From the IMG/VR virus record IMGVR_UViG_3300024255_000004: a stretch of DNA of 64,000 nucleotides; one strand, 5' to 3'. The notes under the pieces were generated by a model that was not told the origin of the DNA, did not search any database, and saw only the letters and a list, made by a program, of their open reading frames with translations. Position numbers and translations under genes: made by a program. Origin of the DNA: a virus. Shown here in pieces: positions 7,229 to 44,292 of this stretch. Position 1 is the stretch's first letter, and each line of letters opens with the position of its first letter.

Positions 7229-7636
7229 ATGACAAAAGAACCAATAGACGATAAGTTAAACTCTCTCTTAGATATCAACACCGATATCAAAAAAGAAACA
7301 CAAGTAGTTAAATTACCGACAAGAGCAGAGAACATGGACACGGACTATAAGTATGCTCGTGAGAACCTCTACAACCTCGTAGAACGTGGTCAAGATGCAA
7401 TAGACGGAATACTTGAGTTGTCTAAAGAAACGGAACACCCACGTGCATATGAGGTCGCAGGACAGTTGATAAAGACTGTAGCGGATACTGCAGAGAAACT
7501 ACTAGACGTTCAGAAAAAAATTAAGGATTTAGAAAAAGAGGACGAACAAAGAATAGGTAAAGTTGAAAATCACCTATATGTTGGTTCTACTTCAGAACTG
7601 CAGAAGTTTTTGAAGAAAGAAAAGAAAGATGGTTAA
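7229..7636 (+). CDS. gp16: Terminase small subunit gp16
   Basis: DYKYARENLY, HPRAYEV and VGSTSELQK. Confidence 0.95.
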   Translation: MTKEPIDDKLNSLLDINTDIKKETQVVKLPTRAENMDTDYKYARENLYNLVERGQDAIDGILELSKETEHPRAYEVAGQLIKTVADTAEKLLDVQKKIKDLEKEDEQRIGKVENHLYVGSTSELQKFLKKEKKDG

Positions 7637-9230
7637 ACCCACAAACGAAGGTTATCTTGGTAATAATCTAATCAAAAGAGCTGGAATCGAAACCCAGTAT
7701 ACCAAAAAACAAATGGAAGAATACTTGAAGTGTTCTGAAAATCCTGCTCATTTTATAGAAAATTACACACAAATCATATCACTAGACGAAGGTATGGTTC
7801 CCTTTACACTTCGTGGATATCAAGAAAACCTAATCAACCATTATAATGACAATCGTTTCAATGTGGTTCTTGCAAGTAGACAGAGTGGTAAATCAATTAC
7901 TTCTTGTGCATATTTGTTGTGGTTTCTATTATTTAAACCCGAAGTCACTGTAGCAGTTCTTGCTAACAAAGGTGCAATTGCAAGAGAAATGATTGCACGT
8001 ATTGTCACCATGTTAGAGTCTGTTCCATTCTTTTTACAGCCAGGAGTCAAGATTCTAAACAAAGGGTCAATAGAATTTGCAAATGATAGTAAAGTCGTTG
8101 CAGCTGCAACTTCTTCAAGTTCAATTCGTGGACTTTCAATCAACCTACTATACTTAGACGAGTTTGCATTCGTAGACGATGCAGAGACATTCTATACTGC
8201 AACATATCCCGTTGTGACCTCGGGTAAAGACTCTAAGGTTATTATTACTTCCACTGCAAATGGTGTAGGTAATATGTTTCATAAGATATATGAATCTGCA
8301 GTTCATAGTCAATCAGAATATAAATCCTTTCTTATCAACTGGTATGACGTGCCAGGCAGAGACGAAGAGTGGAAGAAAGAAACTATTGCAAACACCTCAG
8401 AAGCACAATTCGAACAAGAGTATGGGAACTCATTCTTAGGAACTGGTAATACACTTATTAACTCTAATACACTATTAGGTATGAGAGCGTTAGAACCCGA
8501 CTGGAATAGAGACAACTTATTCCTTTATGAGAAACCATTAGAGGGTCATAGATACGTTTGCACAGTAGACGTATCCAAAGGTAGGGGGTTAGATTACTCT
8601 TCGTTTACAATTATAGACGTGACTACAAGTCCCTTTAAACAAGTATGCACATATAGAGATAACATGATAAGTCCCCTTCTCTTCCCCGATATTATAAATA
8701 AATATGTTAAACATTATAATGAACCAGTCGTTATTATAGAAAATAATGCAGAGGGTGGAATGGTTGCAACACAACTACATTACGAGATAGAATATCCGAA
8801 TGTATTTGTTCAAGGTCAACTAAAAGCCGAAGACATAGGTGTGACCATGTCTAGAAAGATTAAGAGAATCGGTTGTTCTACACTTAAAGAATTATTAGAA
8901 GAAAATAGACTTATTCTGAATGACAGACATACTATTACAGAACTTATGACTTTTGTTCATAAGGGTAATAGTTGGGAAGCAGATAGAGGATATAATGACG
9001 ATATGGTCATGAATTTGGTATTATTCAGTTGGTTTGTGACCACTGCATACTTTGAACATTTAACCGATACACAAGTTAAAGATTTATTGTATTCAGAACA
9101 ACAGAGGTTAATCGAAGACGATTTATTACCAGCTGGTATATTTGACGGGGAGTCTCAGTCAGATACCTTCGTAGATAGTGAAGGAGACCGATGGTTTCAC
9201 AAAAGTATGGATATACCAATTAAATTATAG
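7629..9230 (+). CDS. gp17: Terminase large subunit gp17
   Basis: Walker A SRQSGKS, Walker B YLDEFAF, TSTANG, and nuclease motifs VDVSKG...DYS and NDDMVM. Confidence 0.97.
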   Translation: MVKPTNEGYLGNNLIKRAGIETQYTKKQMEEYLKCSENPAHFIENYTQIISLDEGMVPFTLRGYQENLINHYNDNRFNVVLASRQSGKSITSCAYLLWFLLFKPEVTVAVLANKGAIAREMIARIVTMLESVPFFLQPGVKILNKGSIEFANDSKVVAAATSSSSIRGLSINLLYLDEFAFVDDAETFYTATYPVVTSGKDSKVIITSTANGVGNMFHKIYESAVHSQSEYKSFLINWYDVPGRDEEWKKETIANTSEAQFEQEYGNSFLGTGNTLINSNTLLGMRALEPDWNRDNLFLYEKPLEGHRYVCTVDVSKGRGLDYSSFTIIDVTTSPFKQVCTYRDNMISPLLFPDIINKYVKHYNEPVVIIENNAEGGMVATQLHYEIEYPNVFVQGQLKAEDIGVTMSRKIKRIGCSTLKELLEENRLILNDRHTITELMTFVHKGNSWEADRGYNDDMVMNLVLFSWFVTTAYFEHLTDTQVKDLLYSEQQRLIEDDLLPAGIFDGESQSDTFVDSEGDRWFHKSMDIPIKL

Positions 9231-36559: not shown

Positions 36560-36802
36560 ATGGAAATCATAATTGGAATAATAGTTGTTGTAGGTATTGT
36601 TTACTTTATTCAAAATAAGAAGGATAAAGGTTCAAGTGTGTCAAAACCGACACCAGCACCTAAACCTAAAACACCAAGTGTTGCAGAATTAAAGAAACTT
36701 ACCAAGAATCAACTCATTGAAATGGCAGATAAGAAAAATCTTAAAGTCAAGAAGAGTGGTTCTAAAGCAAATGTTATAAGTGAATTACGAGAACAGTTAT
36801 AA
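36560..36802 (+). CDS. Membrane-anchored protein with a C-terminal SAP/Rho-N-like helical domain
   Basis: N-terminal TM helix, Pro-rich linker, then ELKKLTKNQLIEMA...KANVISEL. Confidence 0.6.
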   Translation: MEIIIGIIVVVGIVYFIQNKKDKGSSVSKPTPAPKPKTPSVAELKKLTKNQLIEMADKKNLKVKKSGSKANVISELREQL

Positions 36803-36817
36803 ACTGAACGTAATAAC

Positions 36818-36843
36818 AAAAGGGTGCTTATGCACCCTTTTTT
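36818..36843 (+). terminator. Rho-independent terminator
   Basis: AAAAGGGTGC-TTAT-GCACCC followed by T6. Confidence 0.88.
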
Positions 36844-36865
36844 ATTGTCTGTAAACAGTTATTAG

Positions 36866-36873
36866 TATAAATA
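36866..36873 (+). promoter_or_regulatory. Late promoter of the curli/cyclase operon
   Basis: TATAAATA 5 nt before ATG 36879. Confidence 0.78.
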
Positions 36874-36878
36874 AAGGT

Positions 36879-37172
36879 ATGGATATATTTGGTTTGATAA
36901 GTGAAGTGGGAGCTCCGATTGCTGGAAGTCTAGTGATGGGTTTCTTTATTTTTACAGTTATCAAACAAATACTAGAAGGTGTCGTTGATTCTATCAAAAC
37001 CCTTACCATGTTCTGTAAGTCACTAGAAAATCGTGCAAGAACAATGTCTAACGAAATGATTAAGATAGACATGTTAGTGTCAAGTGCCTTAGAACTTAGA
37101 CCCGATATAGAGAGAATTGCACGTGCAGAGAACTTTATAGAAGACGGGAAACTAGACGTGAGAAGGGACTAG
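36879..37172 (+). CDS. Small membrane protein (first gene of the curli-type operon)
   Basis: LISEVGAPIA then a TM helix and coiled coil; resembles the next ORF. Confidence 0.7.
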   Translation: MDIFGLISEVGAPIAGSLVMGFFIFTVIKQILEGVVDSIKTLTMFCKSLENRARTMSNEMIKIDMLVSSALELRPDIERIARAENFIEDGKLDVRRD

Positions 37173-37453
37173 TGGAAAATATTGCACAACTTATTTCTGA
37201 TTATGGATTTCCAATCGTAATGATGGTTGGACTTGGATATTTCGTATATTATGTTTGGTGGTTTGTGGGTGAAAAATTGGAACCCGAAATCGAAAAACAA
37301 CACTTTGCATTGATTAAAGTGATTGACCAAGTGCGAATGTTAGACCAAGACTTGATTCGTCTACAACAAAAAGTAGACGTAGTTCTCGAATACAAAGAGA
37401 ATCAAAAAAAGAGAGGAAACATGACAGATGATAAAACCGACAGTAATAATTAG
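37172..37453 (+). CDS. Small membrane protein (second gene of the curli-type operon)
   Basis: LISDYGFPIV then a TM helix and IDQVRMLDQDLIRL. Confidence 0.7.
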   Translation: MENIAQLISDYGFPIVMMVGLGYFVYYVWWFVGEKLEPEIEKQHFALIKVIDQVRMLDQDLIRLQQKVDVVLEYKENQKKRGNMTDDKTDSNN

Positions 37454-37886
37454 TATTTGTTTTGCACTTAGTGTAAGTGCAGATGAAATAGTTCACAAAT
37501 TCAAAAGTCCTTCCTTCAATGGAATAGGACAATCATCACACTATCTCACAATTGAGAATCAAGAAAAATCAAGACGTGATAAGATAGCACAAGACATAGA
37601 AGACCGAATTGCAAAAGCAGAAAGAGATGCAGATAATACCACTCTTGCAAAATTTTTAAGAAACGTAGAAAGTAGAATTTATGCTCAGATAGCAAAACAG
37701 TTAGTAGAAAATATGTTCTCTAACGGAGAAGCTGCATCATATGGAGTTTTCTCAATAGAAGGGAATACAGTCACATACGAAAAATTAGTTGGTGAAGATG
37801 GTGCAGAATTTATTAGGTTAACCATTGTAGCAGAAGACGGGACGACAACAACTTTAGATATACCAGTTGGAACAGGAAGTTTCTAA
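37428..37886 (+). CDS. csgF: Curli assembly protein CsgF-like
   Basis: Signal peptide, mature N-terminus DEIVHKFKSPSFNG (compare CsgF FQFRNPNFGG), C-terminal DGTTTTLDIP; next to csgG. Confidence 0.8.
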   Translation: MIKPTVIISICFALSVSADEIVHKFKSPSFNGIGQSSHYLTIENQEKSRRDKIAQDIEDRIAKAERDADNTTLAKFLRNVESRIYAQIAKQLVENMFSNGEAASYGVFSIEGNTVTYEKLVGEDGAEFIRLTIVAEDGTTTTLDIPVGTGSF

Positions 37887-38798
37887 ATGAAAAATGTAGG
37901 ATTAGTAGGACTAATTATGGTCTTGCTCACTAGTGGGTGTGCAAGTATTCCTTCCATGCAAGACACTTGTGATTCTACAGTTATGCAACGTGTAGGTTCA
38001 TGTATTGAAGATGCAGAGGTTGTGAAGATACCAACCTACCAAGAACTTGCAGACTTACCAGCTGCAGAGACAATGCCTATTGTTGCAGTGTATGGTTTTT
38101 TAGATAAGACAGGACAAAGGAAGAGAATGGACGGAGTTGCATCATTCTCAACTGCAGTGACCCAAGGTGCAGAAGCATTCTTGATTGATGCACTTAAGAC
38201 TGCTGGAAAAGGTAAATGGTTTAGAGTAGTAGAGAGAACAAATTTAGATGCACTTGTAAGAGAGAGACAAATCATACGAAGTGCAAGAGAAGACTTTGCA
38301 AATCAAGAAGGTAATGAAGATTCCCCAACAGGAATTCAACCTCTTTTATTTGCTGGTATCCTTCTTGACGGAGGGATAGTTGGTTATGACACTAACATTG
38401 AAAGTGGTGGACGAGGTGCAAGAACATTAGGCATCGGTGCATCAAACTCCTATAGGAGAGATGTGGTGACTGTAAGTTTGAGAGGAATTTCAACACTTAC
38501 TGGTGAAATATTATTAAACGTCCAAACTAAGAAGACGATTCTTAGCACGGGTGGTGGGTATGATGTATTCAAGTTTGTGGATATGGATACTCAACTAGTG
38601 GAAGTAGAAGATGGTGTAGCACAAAACGAAGGAGTCACAAAAGCGACTCGTTCTGCAATTGAACTTGCCGTCTTAGAATTAATATACCAAGGACACGATA
38701 GAGGTTTTTGGGAAATAAAAAGTGGACATCGTCACCCTCATGGAACTCATGGGAGAAACGAACTTCACAATATAGAGGAAAAACAAAATGAAGAATAA
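37887..38798 (+). CDS. csgG: Curli secretion pore lipoprotein CsgG
   Basis: Lipobox LTSGC, AVYGFLDKTGQRK, FSTAVTQG, WFRVVER..L..L.RERQIIR and GGIVGYD. Confidence 0.93.
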   Translation: MKNVGLVGLIMVLLTSGCASIPSMQDTCDSTVMQRVGSCIEDAEVVKIPTYQELADLPAAETMPIVAVYGFLDKTGQRKRMDGVASFSTAVTQGAEAFLIDALKTAGKGKWFRVVERTNLDALVRERQIIRSAREDFANQEGNEDSPTGIQPLLFAGILLDGGIVGYDTNIESGGRGARTLGIGASNSYRRDVVTVSLRGISTLTGEILLNVQTKKTILSTGGGYDVFKFVDMDTQLVEVEDGVAQNEGVTKATRSAIELAVLELIYQGHDRGFWEIKSGHRHPHGTHGRNELHNIEEKQNEE

Positions 38799-39516
38799 AC
38801 TTCTTTTATTATGTTTATCATTAGGGTTAACTGGTTTCGTATCTGCAGCTGCAGATGATAACGAGATTTGGATACAACAGTCGGGTGACAATTTAATATT
38901 GAATTTCACTCAAAAAGGTTATGGAAACAAAGTTGGTGGAGATGATTTCTCTGGCACTTCAATTGACATGATTTTAACTGGTGCAACTAACAGTTTAACA
39001 TTATTACAAGACGGAGATAACAATAAGTTATTCGGGCCTTTTATTGCAGATACTTCAACAGTAAATTTAACTTTTACTGGTGATTCTAACTCAATGGATT
39101 GGAACGTAGGATATGTTGGTAGTGCAGATAACTTAAACATGTTAGGTGTTATTACAGGTGACTCAAACACATTTGACATTGATGTCGGATATGATGCATC
39201 TGCAGAATACCTTAACTGGGATTTAGTGTTAACTGGAGATTCAAACGTATTCACTACTAAAATAGATAGTGACAATGCAGTTTGGAACTGGACTATTACT
39301 GGAGATTCAAATGATATTAATACTAACCAATCAGATGCAACCGATAACAGTATCACTGCAGTCTTAACTGGTTCTACAAATGATATAGACATCATTCAAA
39401 AGAGTGGTTCAGATGCTGGTTGTCCTTCAGGGTCATCTTGTAGTGGTATTATTGATGTATCTTTCGTGACTTCTAATGCAAATATTGATATCGTTCAGAA
39501 AGATACTAACGATTAA
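38788..39516 (+). CDS. Secreted curlin-like beta-repeat protein
   Basis: Signal peptide, QxGxxN units, five TG(D/S)(S/T)N repeats about 23-28 aa apart, and a C-terminal Cys pair. Confidence 0.75.
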   Translation: MKNKLLLLCLSLGLTGFVSAAADDNEIWIQQSGDNLILNFTQKGYGNKVGGDDFSGTSIDMILTGATNSLTLLQDGDNNKLFGPFIADTSTVNLTFTGDSNSMDWNVGYVGSADNLNMLGVITGDSNTFDIDVGYDASAEYLNWDLVLTGDSNVFTTKIDSDNAVWNWTITGDSNDINTNQSDATDNSITAVLTGSTNDIDIIQKSGSDAGCPSGSSCSGIIDVSFVTSNANIDIVQKDTND

Positions 39517-40612
39517 TCTTTTACTTATTGGTTCAGTTTCAGCTGAACCAATAGGTGAGATTATAGAATATAAGGGTTCAGCAGGACTTCAGAGAGACGG
39601 AGAGTCTACTCTTGTCAGTGCAAATACTGAACCTGATGTGTTGATGTATGATACAGCACAAACTCAGAATGGGAGAATGAAGATTGAGTTCAAAGGTGAA
39701 GAACGACTGGACTTAACAGAACACTCCAAGGTTTGGATTGACGAGGTATATTACGACCCCGACCCTTCTAAATCCAAAATGGCCATACGAATGGCACAAG
39801 GCACCGCTAGATTTGCTTCAGGATTCGGTGGGAAGATAAAGAAAAGTAATATTAAAGTATCGACACCTACAGCACAAATTGCTGTGGTTGGAACAGATTT
39901 CACTACAAGTATTGATGAACTTGGAAGGTCACTTGTTATACTTTTGCCTGACGAATTTGGTAATCCTTCAGGAAAAATTATTGTGAGTAATGCTGGTGGA
40001 AGTGTCACATTGGAAGAGGCTTATCAAGCAACTATGGTATCCACTTTTGACGATTCACCTACTAAACCAGTGACAGTGAATGGTATTGATGGGAGTATGA
40101 TTGACAATATGTTTATTGTGAATCCACCCGAAGAGGTGAAAGAACAAGTTGCAGAAGAATCGTCTAACAACGAAAATGATAGTAGCAACATTCTTGACGT
40201 GGACTTTTTAGAGTTCAATGATTTAGAAGAAGATTACTTTGAAGACGATGAATTAGAATATACAGAACTCGATAGAGACTTATTAGATATCGATTTCTTA
40301 CAAGATTTACTAGATGTAGTTTTGGAGATTGACCGAAAGGTTGGTATCGATGCAGAAAGAAAGGCAGACCCTTTCGGAGTTGCAAGAATAGAAGGAACTG
40401 CATTTGGGTTTGATAAGGACTCTCAATACAATACAATTGTTGATAAGGGTCTTGGTCAAATTTGGTTCTACAGGGAAGTTCAAGGAGTTATCTCCATTAA
40501 AATCCCAATCTATGCACAAGCAACGATTAGAACCACTACAGACGAAAAAGGTTCACTAATTAAAGTGGGTGATGGTTCGTCTATAAATATTACCATTACA
40601 CAAACAAACTAG
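39476..40612 (+). CDS. FecR-domain periplasmic protein
   Basis: Signal-like N-terminus, D...T..GR..I.F, LTEHSKV.ID and TPTAQIAVVGTDF, followed by an acidic tract. Confidence 0.85.
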   Translation: MQILISFRKILTINLLLIGSVSAEPIGEIIEYKGSAGLQRDGESTLVSANTEPDVLMYDTAQTQNGRMKIEFKGEERLDLTEHSKVWIDEVYYDPDPSKSKMAIRMAQGTARFASGFGGKIKKSNIKVSTPTAQIAVVGTDFTTSIDELGRSLVILLPDEFGNPSGKIIVSNAGGSVTLEEAYQATMVSTFDDSPTKPVTVNGIDGSMIDNMFIVNPPEEVKEQVAEESSNNENDSSNILDVDFLEFNDLEEDYFEDDELEYTELDRDLLDIDFLQDLLDVVLEIDRKVGIDAERKADPFGVARIEGTAFGFDKDSQYNTIVDKGLGQIWFYREVQGVISIKIPIYAQATIRTTTDEKGSLIKVGDGSSINITITQTN

Positions 40613-40621
40613 GAGAAATAT

Positions 40622-40771
40622 ATGAATAGTATGTTAGAAAAACTTCGTAATTGGCACGAATTTCAGTTAACTGGATTTCAAGATGCAATGAGACTGGACG
40701 ATTACCACATGTTGTGGTTATCATTTGGAAAAGGAGTAGTATTTACAATATTATTTTTATGGATTATCTAA
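40622..40771 (+). CDS. Small membrane protein, 49 aa (not in the ORF track)
   Basis: SD AGGAG; MNSMLEKLRNWHEFQLTGFQDAMRLDDYHMLWLSFGKGVVFTILFLWII; TAATG-coupled to the next gene. Confidence 0.65.
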   Translation: MNSMLEKLRNWHEFQLTGFQDAMRLDDYHMLWLSFGKGVVFTILFLWII

Positions 40772-41406
40772 TGAAAAAAAGTTTATTATTAATTTTATTG
40801 ACACCTCTAACATGGGCTGGGGATAACCACGTCCATGTTGAGCAGGTTGCAAGTGGAGACGTTGACCTTAACATAACACAAGCAGGTTATGATAATGAAA
40901 TTAAGTTCTCATTTGCACATAGTGGAAACACATTCAATCTATTACAAACAGGAAATGGAAACTCTATTTCTTGGGTCTCTTACTGGGGGCCTGGAAAGTC
41001 TTGGGGTGGTGACGTAGACGGAATCAACAATACTGAAAACGTAGAACAGATTGGTGGTGCAACATATGGTAGACACATATGGGGTAATAATAATACAGTA
41101 GATGTATATCAAAACGGAAGTCATACACATAACATAGACGTTCACTCAAATTCAGTAGACCACGAAATACACCAGTCGGGTAGTGGTTCACATTATGCAC
41201 ACACTTACTTCTATGGAAGTGCAACAGGTTCAGATAGTAGTATCATGCAGAAGGGTTCAGGAAATCATAATGCACAAATTACTTTACAGGGTTCATATCC
41301 AACAACACTTAACCTTTTACAAGAAGGTTCAACAAACAAAGCATATACACTCACCCAAAACTGCGTCACAGCAGGTGGTTGTTCAGTATCGGTCACTCAA
41401 CAATGA
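40771..41406 (+). CDS. Secreted curlin-repeat protein (His-rich)
   Basis: Signal peptide MKKSLLLILLTPLTWA; repeats QAGYDN, QTGNGN, QSGSGSH, QKGSGNH and QEGSTN; C-terminal CVTAGGC. Confidence 0.8.
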   Translation: MKKSLLLILLTPLTWAGDNHVHVEQVASGDVDLNITQAGYDNEIKFSFAHSGNTFNLLQTGNGNSISWVSYWGPGKSWGGDVDGINNTENVEQIGGATYGRHIWGNNNTVDVYQNGSHTHNIDVHSNSVDHEIHQSGSGSHYAHTYFYGSATGSDSSIMQKGSGNHNAQITLQGSYPTTLNLLQEGSTNKAYTLTQNCVTAGGCSVSVTQQ

Positions 41407-41621
41407 ATTCAGAATGTCCCCAACCTATCGAGTGGGACGATGAACTCGAATCATCAGAACTTGAATTAGGAGATGTCGAAGCTGCATCTGATTTCGTATG
41501 GCAAGTTCTCTTCCTTACACCAATAGAGTTGGTCTACATAGGATTCACAATGACAGTCCTTGCAACATATGGACTTTCTATTTACTATATCTATAAACGA
41601 ATACAAAAGAAATTCTCATAA
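41403..41621 (+). CDS. Small membrane protein
   Basis: Acidic N-terminus plus a TM helix; coupled to genes on both sides. Confidence 0.6.
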   Translation: MNSECPQPIEWDDELESSELELGDVEAASDFVWQVLFLTPIELVYIGFTMTVLATYGLSIYYIYKRIQKKFS

Positions 41622-43459
41622 TGTATAGTTGGAAAACAGTCCTAATCACCATTGGTGTATTTGTAGGACTTAAAATTTGGTCTCCTTACTTAGTAGAGAA
41701 TATTAAGTGGTCTTACTTTGATGTTCTTCATCAGAGTCAGGAGAAAGTTCAGGTAGAAGATATTGTCTTAGTAGACATAGACGAGAAGTCACTTGAAGTG
41801 TTCGGTCAGTATCCTATCAAACGTAGTATCTATAGGGATTTACTCCTTGACACTCATTACACTAACACACATGTTTTCACTCAACTCTTTAATCAACCTG
41901 ATAGAAATCAGGGAGAAGACGAAATCTTTGCAGAAGGATTGGTCAATAGATTAACAATTCTATCAGCTGCACCCACCATTCAAAAGAACACTGGTTCTGC
42001 ACCCTTCGTAGGAAACTCTACTTTCGGTAGTGGAAATGCAACAGACTACCTATGGAACTTCTCAGGAATTTCAAGTCCTATCAGGATACTTCAGGACAAT
42101 ACTTATGGAGTTGGGGTCACTGTTGCAACACCTAGTGTTAGTGGAACACCAAACTTTGACGGGACAACTAGGTCTATCCCTTTAATCATAACTGCAAATG
42201 AACAGGTATATCCGTCTCTTGCACTGGAAACACTTCGTGCATTAAAAGACCAACCTTCGTATCAAACTAAAATTACAGAAGTTGGAGTAGAGTGGGTAAG
42301 AATGGGCAGAGACAAACCTATCACCACCACTCCAACGAGTGACGTTATGGTGTCCTATTGGAACGAATTCCAACGGGTTTCTGCTGTCGACTTACCTAAT
42401 CTAAATCTTACTAATAAAATTCTGATATGGGGTTTGACTGCAGAGGGATTGAATAATCCAGTTTCAACTCCAGTGGGAATATTGTATCCTCACGAAGTGC
42501 AAGCGAACCATATCCAAACCTCTTTGTCAGGAGTTCAAATACAACAATCCTACTATCTTGAATTGCTTGAGATTGCTCTTCTGATGACAGTTCTTGTATT
42601 GATATTGGTGATGGTTTACAAACTTCCCACAATTCTTTCGGGGGTAATGAGTCTAACACTTGTAGGACTTCAAATCTTCGGGAGTTATTATATTTGGACT
42701 TCAGAGCTCGTTCTTTTCGATACCTTCTTTTCATCAATTGCCTCCTTGATTGTTTTTGGTCATGCCTCTTTCAATCAATACTATACAACCTACCAACTCA
42801 AAGAAGAAATCAAGAAGCAGTTCCAAAAGTATTTATCTCCCGACATGGTTGACCAACTTGCAGAAAACCCCGATTTACTTAAATTGGGTGGAGATAGAAA
42901 AGAGTTAACTTTCATGTTTATGGACATATGTGGATTCACCCCCATAAGCGAACACTACATGAAACAAGACGACCCCGAGGGATTAGTGGAACTCATTAAC
43001 AAATTCCTTGACATGCAAACAAAGATAATCCTAAATAACAATGGAACCATTGATAAGTATATGGGTGATTGTATTATGAGTTTTTGGAATGCACCTTTAG
43101 ATTGTCCCGACCATGCCGAGATGGCAGTCAAGTCTGCAGAAGAAATACTAATTGCTACCAAGGAACTCAATGAAGAACTCAAACCACTCGGTCTTCCCCC
43201 TATCAATGTTGGTATTGGTATTAACACTGGGGAGTGTATCGTTGGAAACATGGGGTCAGAACTTAGATTTGACTATTCCGTCATTGGAGATGCAGTTAAC
43301 CTCGGAGCTAGACTCGAAGGACAAACGAGAAATTATGATGGGGTGGACGTGTTGTTGGGACAAGAAACATATCTACAATGTCCGTCTAGAGCATTCACTG
43401 AAGTCGATAGGATTACAGTCAAAGGAAAATCTGAACCAGTCACAGTTTACACTATCTGA
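41621..43459 (+). CDS. CHASE2-domain class III adenylate cyclase
   Basis: CHASE2 motifs (IVLVDIDEKSL..GQYP, DGTTRSIPL, PSLALE, TPVG), three TM helices, and catalytic FMDICGFT, DKYMGD, GDAVNLGARLEG and KGK. Confidence 0.93.
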   Translation: MYSWKTVLITIGVFVGLKIWSPYLVENIKWSYFDVLHQSQEKVQVEDIVLVDIDEKSLEVFGQYPIKRSIYRDLLLDTHYTNTHVFTQLFNQPDRNQGEDEIFAEGLVNRLTILSAAPTIQKNTGSAPFVGNSTFGSGNATDYLWNFSGISSPIRILQDNTYGVGVTVATPSVSGTPNFDGTTRSIPLIITANEQVYPSLALETLRALKDQPSYQTKITEVGVEWVRMGRDKPITTTPTSDVMVSYWNEFQRVSAVDLPNLNLTNKILIWGLTAEGLNNPVSTPVGILYPHEVQANHIQTSLSGVQIQQSYYLELLEIALLMTVLVLILVMVYKLPTILSGVMSLTLVGLQIFGSYYIWTSELVLFDTFFSSIASLIVFGHASFNQYYTTYQLKEEIKKQFQKYLSPDMVDQLAENPDLLKLGGDRKELTFMFMDICGFTPISEHYMKQDDPEGLVELINKFLDMQTKIILNNNGTIDKYMGDCIMSFWNAPLDCPDHAEMAVKSAEEILIATKELNEELKPLGLPPINVGIGINTGECIVGNMGSELRFDYSVIGDAVNLGARLEGQTRNYDGVDVLLGQETYLQCPSRAFTEVDRITVKGKSEPVTVYTI

Positions 43460-43763
43460 ACTACCTAATACGTTTGATTGGACTGCATTCTATACTCTTC
43501 AACTACTAGATATCTACACAACATATCGTGGACTTAAATATGATTGTGTCGAAGAACTAAATCCACTCGTAGGAGAGTCTCCTTCAGTCCCTAAAATGTT
43601 CGCAGTTAAGACTGCAATTCTATTACCTGCTATCGAGATGGATAGAAGAACCCACGAATTAACTTCAGATACATTCGACTATATGAACATTCTTATGGGT
43701 GTAGTGATTGTAAATAACATTCAACAAGTAAGTGATGCAAAAAAATATTGCAATAAAAGATAA
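43206..43763 (+). CDS. Membrane-associated protein (DUF5658-like) overlapping the cyclase 3' end; start uncertain
   Basis: LDIYTTYRGL..ELNPL motif; the only plausible start codons lie inside the cyclase gene. Confidence 0.5.
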   Translation: MLVLVLTLGSVSLETWGQNLDLTIPSLEMQLTSELDSKDKREIMMGWTCCWDKKHIYNVRLEHSLKSIGLQSKENLNQSQFTLSELPNTFDWTAFYTLQLLDIYTTYRGLKYDCVEELNPLVGESPSVPKMFAVKTAILLPAIEMDRRTHELTSDTFDYMNILMGVVIVNNIQQVSDAKKYCNKR

Positions 43764-43770
43764 AACCCCC

Positions 43771-43819
43771 TTGAAATTTTAGAAAAAGTCCTTATAATAG
43801 TAGTATGGTGTTATAAATA
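43771..43819 (+). promoter_or_regulatory. Tandem sigma70-like (TTGAAA..TATAAT) and late (TATAAATA) promoters for hsp20
   Basis: CCCCC-TTGAAA at 43771, TATAAT at 43793, TATAAATA at 43812. Confidence 0.65.
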
Positions 43820-43823
43820 CCAT

Positions 43824-43878
43824 TGTGATGCCCATTAGGGGTCACATAACAATAACTTGCTTAATAAAGGAGAAAACT
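43824..43878 (+). promoter_or_regulatory. ROSE-like RNA thermometer in the hsp20 leader
   Basis: CUUGCUU pairs with the SD AAGGAG leaving a bulged G; upstream UGUGA...UCACA hairpin. Confidence 0.6.
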
Positions 43879-44292
43879 ATGACTATCTATGACGATGTCT
43901 TCGGGAAATCATTCCCATTCGCAATCGGGTTCGACAGAACTCTACAACTATTAGAACGTGCTGATACACATTCTAGTTCAAACTATCCACCTTACAACAT
44001 TGTAAAAATCGATGAGGAAAATTTCCAAATTGAAATGGCAGTGGCTGGGTTCGATAAGAAAGAGGTTTCTATCTCTAAAGAGAAAGAGAAACTAATTATC
44101 GAGGGAGAACAGGATACGGAATCAAAAGAGTATGTCCACCAAGGACTTGCTTCTCGTTCATTCAAAAGGTCATTCACACTTGCAGACGATATAATCGTTA
44201 AGGGTGCAAATATGAAGAATGGTATTTTGATTGTAAGTTTAGAGAGAATTGTGCCTGAGGAAGACAAACCTCAAGAAATCAAAATTTCTTAA
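43879..44292 (+). CDS. hsp20: Small heat-shock protein Hsp20 (IbpA-like)
   Basis: IGFDR, NYPPYNIVK, EMAVAGF, HQGLASRSFKRSF and A.MKNGIL. Confidence 0.95.
   Translation: MTIYDDVFGKSFPFAIGFDRTLQLLERADTHSSSNYPPYNIVKIDEENFQIEMAVAGFDKKEVSISKEKEKLIIEGEQDTESKEYVHQGLASRSFKRSFTLADDIIVKGANMKNGILIVSLERIVPEEDKPQEIKIS

Follow-up and report, generated by a model that had tools for sequence, protein, structure and literature searches.

A late-promoter operon of a marine T4-like phage encodes curli-type secretion proteins together with a FecR-fold protein and a CHASE2 adenylate cyclase

We analyzed a stretch of 64 000 nt of viral DNA (IMG/VR record IMGVR_UViG_3300024255_000004; the whole stretch is called the window in the following) and focused on an operon that encodes the CsgG channel and its partner CsgF, two curlin-like proteins, a FecR-fold protein and a CHASE2 adenylate cyclase. 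We observed that these genes are encoded and inherited together in nearly all relatives of the phage. The gene content of the cassette is already known, and the operon represents, in myovirus form, the viral type VIII secretion system (T8SS, curli) that has been published for pelagiphages. Drawing on gene linkage and analogy only, we lean towards a mechanism in which the cassette would form a sensor that connects a surface fibre to the synthesis of cyclic AMP (cAMP), and we regard this mechanism as the best supported one. The window itself is a piece of a marine T4-like myovirus, with PHROG matches to a tail sheath, a gp43-type DNA polymerase, a clamp loader and a helicase; its G+C content is about 35% and the + strand carries nearly all of its genes. 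The phage relatives used for comparison were three near-complete genomes of 146–154 kb each (G002–G004), a set of loci anchored on the cyclase (80 IMG/VR loci and the two isolates HTVC008M and Melnitz) and a set of 33 loci anchored on CsgG, each with at least 6 kb of DNA downstream. The bacterial set comprised 80 loci, each covering the DNA within 9 kb of one of the nearest cellular homologues of the phage cyclase, and the SAR11 set comprised five genomes, three of them of 1.3–1.4 Mb.

Operon structure and linkage in relatives

Every cyclase-anchored locus with enough upstream DNA was found to contain, in this order, two small membrane proteins (tmA and tmB), CsgF, CsgG, the first curlin-like protein (cur1), the FecR protein, the second curlin-like protein (cur2) and the cyclase. 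When the loci were anchored on CsgG instead, the cyclase was present in 32 of 33 and the FecR gene in all 33, which bears out the expectation of an earlier note on this DNA that the cyclase is linked to csgFG in relatives. Two loci (L196 and L206) carry a second curlin-like gene after FecR, and a cyclase was not found in the 9 kb and 4.8 kb, respectively, that follow CsgG there.

The two curli genes csgF and csgG were first noted in pelagimyophages by Zaragoza-Solas et al. in 2020 (PMC7029224). Wittmers et al. (PMC9599517) then described a cluster in podo- and myovirus pelagiphages that consists of one or two ‘histidine kinases’, CsgF, CsgG, CsgA/B, FecR, a second CsgA/B and an adenylate cyclase, and reported that it lacks CsgE, is distributed globally and is expressed in metatranscriptomes. 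The novelty that the earlier note implied for the cassette therefore falls away, as the cluster had been published with FecR and cyclase in 2022. The annotations of the Pelagibacter phage HTVC008M (KC465899, 7181–13807) and of the Methylophilales phage Melnitz (MZ577097, 50118–56876) show the same order of genes. Like these isolates and the genomes of PMC9599517, the window combines this gene content and order with the lack of CsgE and a T4-like phage context, but its cassette proteins are only 27–49% identical to those of HTVC008M and Melnitz. Compared to the published pelagiphage T8SS, the clade studied here has two extra small transmembrane genes and a gene overprinted on the 3′ end of the cyclase; HTVC008M has no such gene, as its cyclase is followed by a gene on the opposite strand. 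The published descriptions name neither CHASE2 nor the overprinted gene, and the small proteins are called histidine kinases there, which is not confirmed here.

Next, we investigated the layout of the operon. All cassette genes lie on the + strand and overlap or are separated by a few bases, and together they form an operon behind a late promoter. The earlier note had described it as tightly coupled and placed it behind a terminator and a late promoter; we found both, the hairpin with its T-run at 36820–36846 and the octamer TATAAATA at 36866–36873, and every part that the note had named was found in its place on the + strand. The profile hidden Markov models of CsgF, CsgG, FecR, CHASE2 and Guanylate_cyc, proposed there as a check, all scored above their Pfam cut-offs. 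The features are as follows (positions in the window; values after family names are E-values).

36820..36846, + strand: intrinsic terminator of the preceding gene, as read from the sequence; its G+C-rich stem of 8 bp and loop of 4 nt are followed by a T-run
36866..36873, + strand: T4-type late promoter TATAAATA, 13 nt upstream of tmA
36879..37172, + strand: tmA, 97 amino acids (aa), bitopic, with one N-terminal transmembrane segment (TM) and a helical tail; phrog_18771 at 4e-24
37172..37453, + strand: tmB, a 93-aa paralog of tmA; phrog_18771 at 1.6e-23
37428..37886, + strand: CsgF homologue with a signal peptide; PF10614 at 2.4e-11 (44.4 bits, cut-off 25.8); phrog_35372
37887..38798, + strand: CsgG outer-membrane lipoprotein channel; PF03783 at 1e-48; lipobox-like TSGC
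38788..39516, + strand: cur1, a predicted Sec-exported repeat protein, weakly curlin-like, with an N-terminal hydrophobic signal
39476..40612, + strand: FecR-fold protein, predicted to be periplasmic, with a signal peptide, a FecR domain (residues 56–212), an acidic linker and a beta-rich C-terminal part; PF04773 at 9.5e-11
40582..40589, + strand: second TATAAATA, within the 3′ end of the FecR gene, a possible internal late promoter
40622..40771, + strand: small TM protein of 49 aa with ribosome-binding site GGAG and a C-terminal TM (hydrophobic residues 31–49)
40771..41406, + strand: cur2, a predicted Sec-exported curlin-like beta-solenoid with a C-terminal Cys pair
41403..41621, + strand: small TM protein of 72 aa, acidic at the N-terminus and with a single TM; the start codon overlaps the stop codon of cur2 (ATGA)
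41621..43459, + strand: CHASE2 class III adenylate cyclase; CHASE2 PF05226 at 3.4e-27 (residues 15–326), Guanylate_cyc at 1.7e-16
43170..43763, + strand: gene of 197 aa, read in the +1 frame and overprinted on the final 96 cyclase codons, with a signal-peptide-like start and a DUF5658-like C-terminal part

On the + strand of the window the exact octamer TATAAATA occurs 15 times, where 5.6 occurrences are expected, an excess that fits T4-type late promoters. It lies at −13 to −27 in 25 of 36 distinct regions upstream of the cassette in relatives. Only 13 of 35 distinct relatives share the second octamer, which lies 33 nt upstream of the next start codon and in these relatives encodes the residues S-I-N-I. 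Being clade-specific and located inside a coding sequence, it may be a promoter or a chance occurrence, and we do not claim it as a promoter.

Pore, exported proteins and small membrane proteins

Over 274 aa the channel protein CsgG shares 40% identity with its E. coli counterpart, and a Cys follows its signal sequence. In its constriction loop F56 is retained, N55 is replaced by Ser and Y51 is not retained. For CsgF, BLASTP against the E. coli protein gave no significant match; the mature N-terminus reads FKSPSFNG, which by our own reading resembles the pore-insertion motif of CsgF. The earlier note had seen no CsgE, and our search agrees: neither the operon nor the three near-complete relatives gave a match to PF10627 at E ≤ 0.1, while the E. 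coli control was positive. The phage system thus resembles E. coli csgBAC/csgDEFG in its CsgG, in the CsgF partner and in putative exported Q/N/G-rich beta-solenoid subunits. It differs in having no CsgE, CsgC or CsgD, in the altered constriction loop, in curlin-like proteins that carry a C-terminal Cys pair and score far below the CsgA/CsgB cut-offs, and in an operon that includes FecR and a cyclase.

The curlin-like character of cur1 and cur2 was evaluated by sequence profiles and structure models. The first protein, cur1, matched the NCBIfam models CsgB at 1.2e-3 and CsgA at 2e-3, and cur2 matched CsgA at 1.2e-8 (35 bits, cut-off 160) and CsgB at 5.7e-8; all of these scores are below the cut-offs, as is the match of cur2 to the Pfam family Curlin_rpt (17.5 bits, cut-off 20.7). 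A profile of cur1 also matches the cur2 open reading frames (ORFs), so that the two proteins are related. Aligning the cur2 family with E. coli CsgA by hhalign gave a probability of 13%. The AlphaFold2 model of cur2 (mean predicted local distance difference test score, pLDDT, 76) is all-beta with stacked short strands. Its best fold match is CsgA 8c50 (Z 16.6, root-mean-square deviation (rmsd) 8.9, 193 residues aligned, 19% identity), and a second CsgA structure, 8enq, follows at Z 11.9 (rmsd 8.6, 107 aligned). Z-scores of 13–14, close to that of 8c50, are reached by other beta-helices, and tailspikes reach Z 9–10. Foldseek found no match for cur2 at E ≤ 0.001. Among relatives cur2 is the most variable gene of the cassette (31–94% identity). 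For both curlin-like proteins the assignment is weaker than the earlier note had put it: the CsgA match of cur2 at 1.2e-8 stays below the cut-off, and cur1 reaches about 1e-3 only.

For the FecR-fold protein we observed a close structural match of the domain itself. The model of residues 56–212 superimposes on the C-terminal signalling domain of PupR (6ovm) at Z 16.4 (rmsd 2.7, 133 residues aligned) and on 4m0h at Z 14.2, while the next unrelated match is at Z 5.1. The full-length model is reliable only in these residues, its pLDDT being 49.7 overall and below 50 in the linker and C-terminal part. The cytoplasmic anti-sigma domain and the TM are absent: the FecR domain begins about 35 residues after the signal-peptide-like N-terminus, and no further hydrophobic segment or Pfam match was detected in the protein. 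Since a signal sequence stands in place of the anti-sigma domain and TM, sequence and model indicate that the phage protein is a free periplasmic FecR-fold protein and not a FecR regulator. Among the operon genes, to which this search was confined, there is no extracytoplasmic function (ECF) sigma factor and no TonB-dependent transducer. Across relatives the identity of the FecR domain tracks that of CHASE2 (r 0.94) and the identity of the FecR C-terminal part tracks that of cur1 (r 0.99). As all parts of the cassette share descent, these correlations are confounded and give a weak hint only.

The small proteins tmA and tmB, which the earlier note had recognized as related membrane proteins, share 22% identity (E 1e-6) and the common family phrog_18771, in line with paralogy. 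The single hydrophobic segment of tmA spans residues 10–28. Neither protein has a Pfam or NCBIfam match at E ≤ 0.1, and hence neither a HisKA nor a HATPase domain, and tmA contains no His residue at all. With 93–97 aa and no kinase domain, the label ‘histidine kinase’ given to them in PMC9599517 is unsupported. Their neighbours in the ESM Atlas are unnamed phage proteins, with weak leads to YvrJ and Holin_BhlA only. We did not adopt a holin reading, as it would depend on a PHROG match over 20 residues and an Atlas lead below 0.9. In six relatives (L006, L007, L010, L022, L026 and L040) about 1 kb of extra DNA lies between tmB and csgF, so the small paralogs are not always contiguous with the pore genes. 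Only some relatives carry the 49-aa and 72-aa TM genes.

The FecR/CHASE2 pair and the gene overprinted on the cyclase

The cyclase is predicted to consist of a first TM, the periplasmic CHASE2 domain, three further TMs and a cytoplasmic catalytic domain (hydrophobic segments 7–25, 315–333, 335–353 and 363–381). The earlier note had listed both metal-binding Asp residues, the ATP-specifying Lys and the NxxxR motif, and alignment to solved cyclases confirmed them as D435 and D483, K479, and the transition-state residues N560 and R564. In the cyclase alignment D435, K479, D483 and R564 are invariant. The position that specifies the purine is Lys in the phage protein and in the adenylate cyclases 6fht and CyaB (3r5g), while the guanylyl cyclase Cya2 has Glu there (2w01). 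At the second specificity position the phage protein carries Ser, and CyaB of P. aeruginosa carries Thr. Judged by these residues, the phage cyclase looks competent and ATP-specific. The cyclase of Melnitz (L002, 12498–14546) carries a 70-aa C-terminal extension besides an exchange of the NxxxR Asn for Ser, and from its sequence its activity may differ.

In order to place the pair of FecR protein and cyclase, we analyzed the bacterial loci. The nearest cellular homologues of the cyclase, which belong mostly to Alphaproteobacteria and in some cases to SAR86, are 30–35% identical to it over the full length. In the 80 loci we found a FecR ORF in 22 (by the phage FecR profile), HlyD together with an ATP-binding cassette (ABC) protein in 20 and a cyclic-nucleotide-binding (cNMP-binding) ORF in 12, but profiles of phage CsgG, CsgF, cur1, cur2, tmA and tmB had no match in any of them, and no bacterial ancestor that combines curli and cyclase was seen. 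The bacterial FecR proteins in these loci are large and carry RTX, cadherin/Big_9 or NIDO modules. Several Bradyrhizobium-like loci encode a giant FecR protein, ABC, HlyD and the cyclase on one strand (e.g. L150, 2484–11166), and in the best-matching locus (L083) ABC, HlyD, a TolC-like gene and a 653-aa FecR protein surround the cyclase. In a marine alphaproteobacterial single-cell genome (L116) the CHASE2 cyclase is immediately preceded by the gene of an HlyD protein with an N-terminal cNMP-binding domain (7243–8958), which in turn follows a C39-ABC exporter and a TolC-like gene; this fusion suggests that cAMP gates type I secretion there. We conclude that the FecR/CHASE2-cyclase pair habitually travels with a repeat-protein secretion system, which in the phage is of the curli type. 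The phage operon and the alphaproteobacterial type I secretion system (T1SS) loci (such as L150, L116 and L083) are alike in uniting a FecR-domain gene, dedicated secretion of a beta-roll or solenoid protein and the cyclase in one block. The bacterial loci differ in using type I (ABC, HlyD and TolC-like) and not type VIII secretion, in a FecR domain that is fused to the secreted protein and not free-standing, and in often having an adjoining cNMP-binding protein (the 12 loci mentioned above), which in one case is fused to HlyD.

That FecR-domain genes stand beside CHASE2 proteins in bacteria, as stated in the earlier note, is supported by the 22 loci and by two published systems (PMC5192318 and PMC5498481). 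In the ‘BiofilmReg’ operon of Burkholderia (response regulator, LysM-FecR protein, CHASE2 histidine kinase and DUF4136; PMC5192318) an exported FecR-domain protein is likewise encoded directly before the CHASE2 sensor, which is the kinase; the output there is a histidine kinase and not a cyclase, the FecR protein bears LysM and the operon has no secretion system. In S. meliloti smc02177, a gene for a FecR-domain protein, adjoins cyaD1 (PMC5498481), and activation of the CHASE2 cyclases CyaD1, CyaD2 and CyaK requires NsrA, a protein of the outer membrane (PMC13001267). This cascade, which leads to Clr, resembles the phage operon in its alphaproteobacterial-type CHASE2 cyclases and in the extracytoplasmic FecR-domain protein encoded alongside. 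However, its outer-membrane partner, a beta-barrel protein on which the cAMP output depends, is NsrA and not CsgG, and it has the Crp-type receptor Clr next door, while none was found for the phage.

We further analyzed the 3′ end of the cyclase gene. The stretch given in the earlier note runs to 43763, and the cyclase is the last gene named there; the cyclase, however, stops at 43459, and 43460–43763 belongs to the overlapping gene 43170–43763, which the note had not described. The ATG at 43170 is preceded by AAGGA and 5 nt. Over the final 98–117 cyclase codons the +1 frame contains no stop in any of 64 distinct relatives, whereas elsewhere in the gene a stop occurs in almost every bin of 25 codons. 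Synonymous shuffles of the overlap led us to expect 6–8 stops (P ≤ 0.001 in each of 10 divergent sequences). Synonymous variation is 0.75 bits in the overlap compared to about 1.0 bits in the neighbouring catalytic part, and the Leu codons of the cyclase are CTC or CTT there, which avoids stops in the +1 frame. In many relatives the +1 frame opens exactly at a conserved ATG right after a stop and reads as a textbook signal peptide. The last 100 residues of the product, downstream of the cyclase, are 33–89% conserved in relatives and have no start codon of their own. The match of the C-terminal part to DUF5658 (6e-5 to 5e-3 in five members) is below the cut-off. A +1 frameshift that would fuse this tail to the cyclase was also considered and rejected in favour of an internal start, because of the open +1 frame of about 100 codons in all relatives, the conserved ATG that stands right after a stop in many relatives, and the AAGGA and signal-peptide-like start that belong to this ATG.

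The genes flanking the cassette were inspected as well. Before the terminator lies an ORF of 80 aa (36560–36802) with a TM at the N-terminus; its Lys-rich C-terminal helix-turn motif resembles a SAP or Rho-N type domain, and its sole match is a weak one to phrog_2250 (4e-4). Directly after the cassette follows an Hsp20 gene (43812–44292; phrog_432, 3.9e-42) with its own TATAAATA; nearly all relatives have this gene conserved in the same downstream place.

Proposed mechanism, alternatives and meaning

In the mechanism that we favour, the infected cell would late in infection build the pore and export the curlin-like proteins to its surface, the FecR-fold protein would act in the periplasm as a partner or ligand of the CHASE2 domain, and the state of export or of the envelope would set the synthesis of cAMP in the cytoplasm. 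The block would then be a repeat-protein secretion system joined to a FecR/CHASE2-cyclase pair, the combination that Alphaproteobacteria show with type I secretion. For the sensor role of the pair, NsrA acting upstream of CHASE2 cyclases provides a tested precedent (PMC13001267). By analogy, the path from an outer-membrane pore through a periplasmic relay to cAMP that the earlier note had put forward is plausible.

Several observations weigh against a sensor of this kind. The curlin assignment of both exported proteins depends on sequence scores below threshold, one related cassette (L196) has no cyclase, and the Melnitz cyclase has Ser for the transition-state Asn of NxxxR. Melnitz-infected cells showed no clumping (Buchholz et al. 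2022, PMC9004378), and in S. meliloti SMc02177 was dispensable for signal perception (PMC5498481). Furthermore, no cNMP-binding domain (PF00027) was found in the three near-complete phage relatives, which also lack a GAF domain, nor in the five SAR11 genomes, in which class III cyclases are absent too; for this phage the SAR11 results are indirect evidence. The lack of PF00027 in the relatives and SAR11 genomes tested leaves the cAMP signal without an identified receiver. If the host is SAR11-like, neither it nor the phage has a known reader for the messenger that the phage would supply. Any specific proposal for the steps after cAMP becomes weaker for this reason, including the timing of lysis, a role suggested in the earlier note for which we found no support, as nothing ties the operon to lysis timing.

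The explanations that compete with a surface-fibre sensor differ in how well they account for the linkage and for the exported proteins. We consider it unlikely, though worth keeping in mind, that the operon houses two independent functions with no signalling link, where curli would alter the surface (aggregation, ‘sibling capture’ or phage exclusion) and the cyclase would flood the cell with cAMP or drain its ATP. Such independence would fit the bacterial cyclase homologues, which never stand beside CsgG, the podovirus versions, which are often without cyclase and second curlin (PMC9599517), the myovirus-type locus without cyclase and the dispensable SMc02177. It is difficult to reconcile with the near-complete linkage and the order that is kept down to about 70% cyclase identity, and with the recurrence of the FecR-CHASE2 pairing in unrelated bacterial contexts (PMC5192318). 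A large periplasmic sensor domain would also be superfluous for a constitutive enzyme, and CyaD1 becomes constitutive once CHASE2 is deleted (PMC5498481). We find it improbable that CsgG and CsgF form a gated channel or act like a pinholin and time lysis by depolarising or opening the envelope, with cyclase and FecR as regulators. A lysis-timing pore was proposed for Melnitz (PMC9004378), and the late promoter of the operon, the absence of the periplasmic gate CsgE, the altered constriction loop (N55 to Ser, Y51 not retained), the weak holin PHROG likeness of 20 residues at the N-terminus of tmB and the weak Holin_BhlA lead of tmA can be cited for it; yet a channel in the outer membrane cannot depolarise the inner one, two conserved exported solenoid proteins would be left without a role, the holin likenesses are below any threshold and the block contains no lysis gene.

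An import of nutrients or cofactors (iron-siderophore or cobalamin) through the pore with FecR as an iron-related regulator, suggested in PMC7029224 and PMC9599517, is very unlikely in our view. The name of the FecR family points to ferric citrate signalling, but the phage protein has only the FecR fold domain and a signal peptide, without cytoplasmic anti-sigma domain or TM, the block holds neither a TonB-dependent transducer nor an ECF sigma gene, and the curlin-like genes would stay unexplained. The least credible of these explanations is that the curlin-like proteins are virion fibres not secreted through CsgG. They are expressed late, the beta-helix fold also matches tailspikes (Z 9–10) and cur2 is hypervariable as receptor-binding proteins are. 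However, CsgA is the best match in both fold and sequence, and the genes always lie between csgG and the cyclase. We rejected this explanation because cur1 and cur2 start with Sec-type signals, which cytoplasmically assembled T4-type virion proteins lack.

The favoured surface-fibre sensor can be extended to a more general idea, which we put forward as a doubtful one. The exported FecR-fold protein or the fibre that accompanies it would be the long-sought input of CHASE2, in a general reporter of fibre state that is built on T1SS in Alphaproteobacteria and rebuilt on curli in phages. Here cAMP would act through a new kind of receptor, possibly a small membrane protein of the cassette or the overprinted product. 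Such a receptor is invoked because cNMP-binding domains are lacking in the phage relatives and SAR11 genomes tested.

Taken together with published work, our analysis adds the identity of the CHASE2 sensor, the parallel to bacterial type I secretion, the overprinted gene, the lack of a cAMP receptor in the genomes tested and the finding that the kinase label is unsupported. Phages of SAR11 and OM43 are among the most abundant marine viruses, and the cassette takes up about 6.5 kb of the genome. Through it the infected cell acquires functions that are absent from the host genomes: a curli pore and also a class III cyclase, the latter as judged from the SAR11 genomes tested. Once shown, the role of the cassette would explain a widespread viral trait and could give CHASE2 its first ligand.

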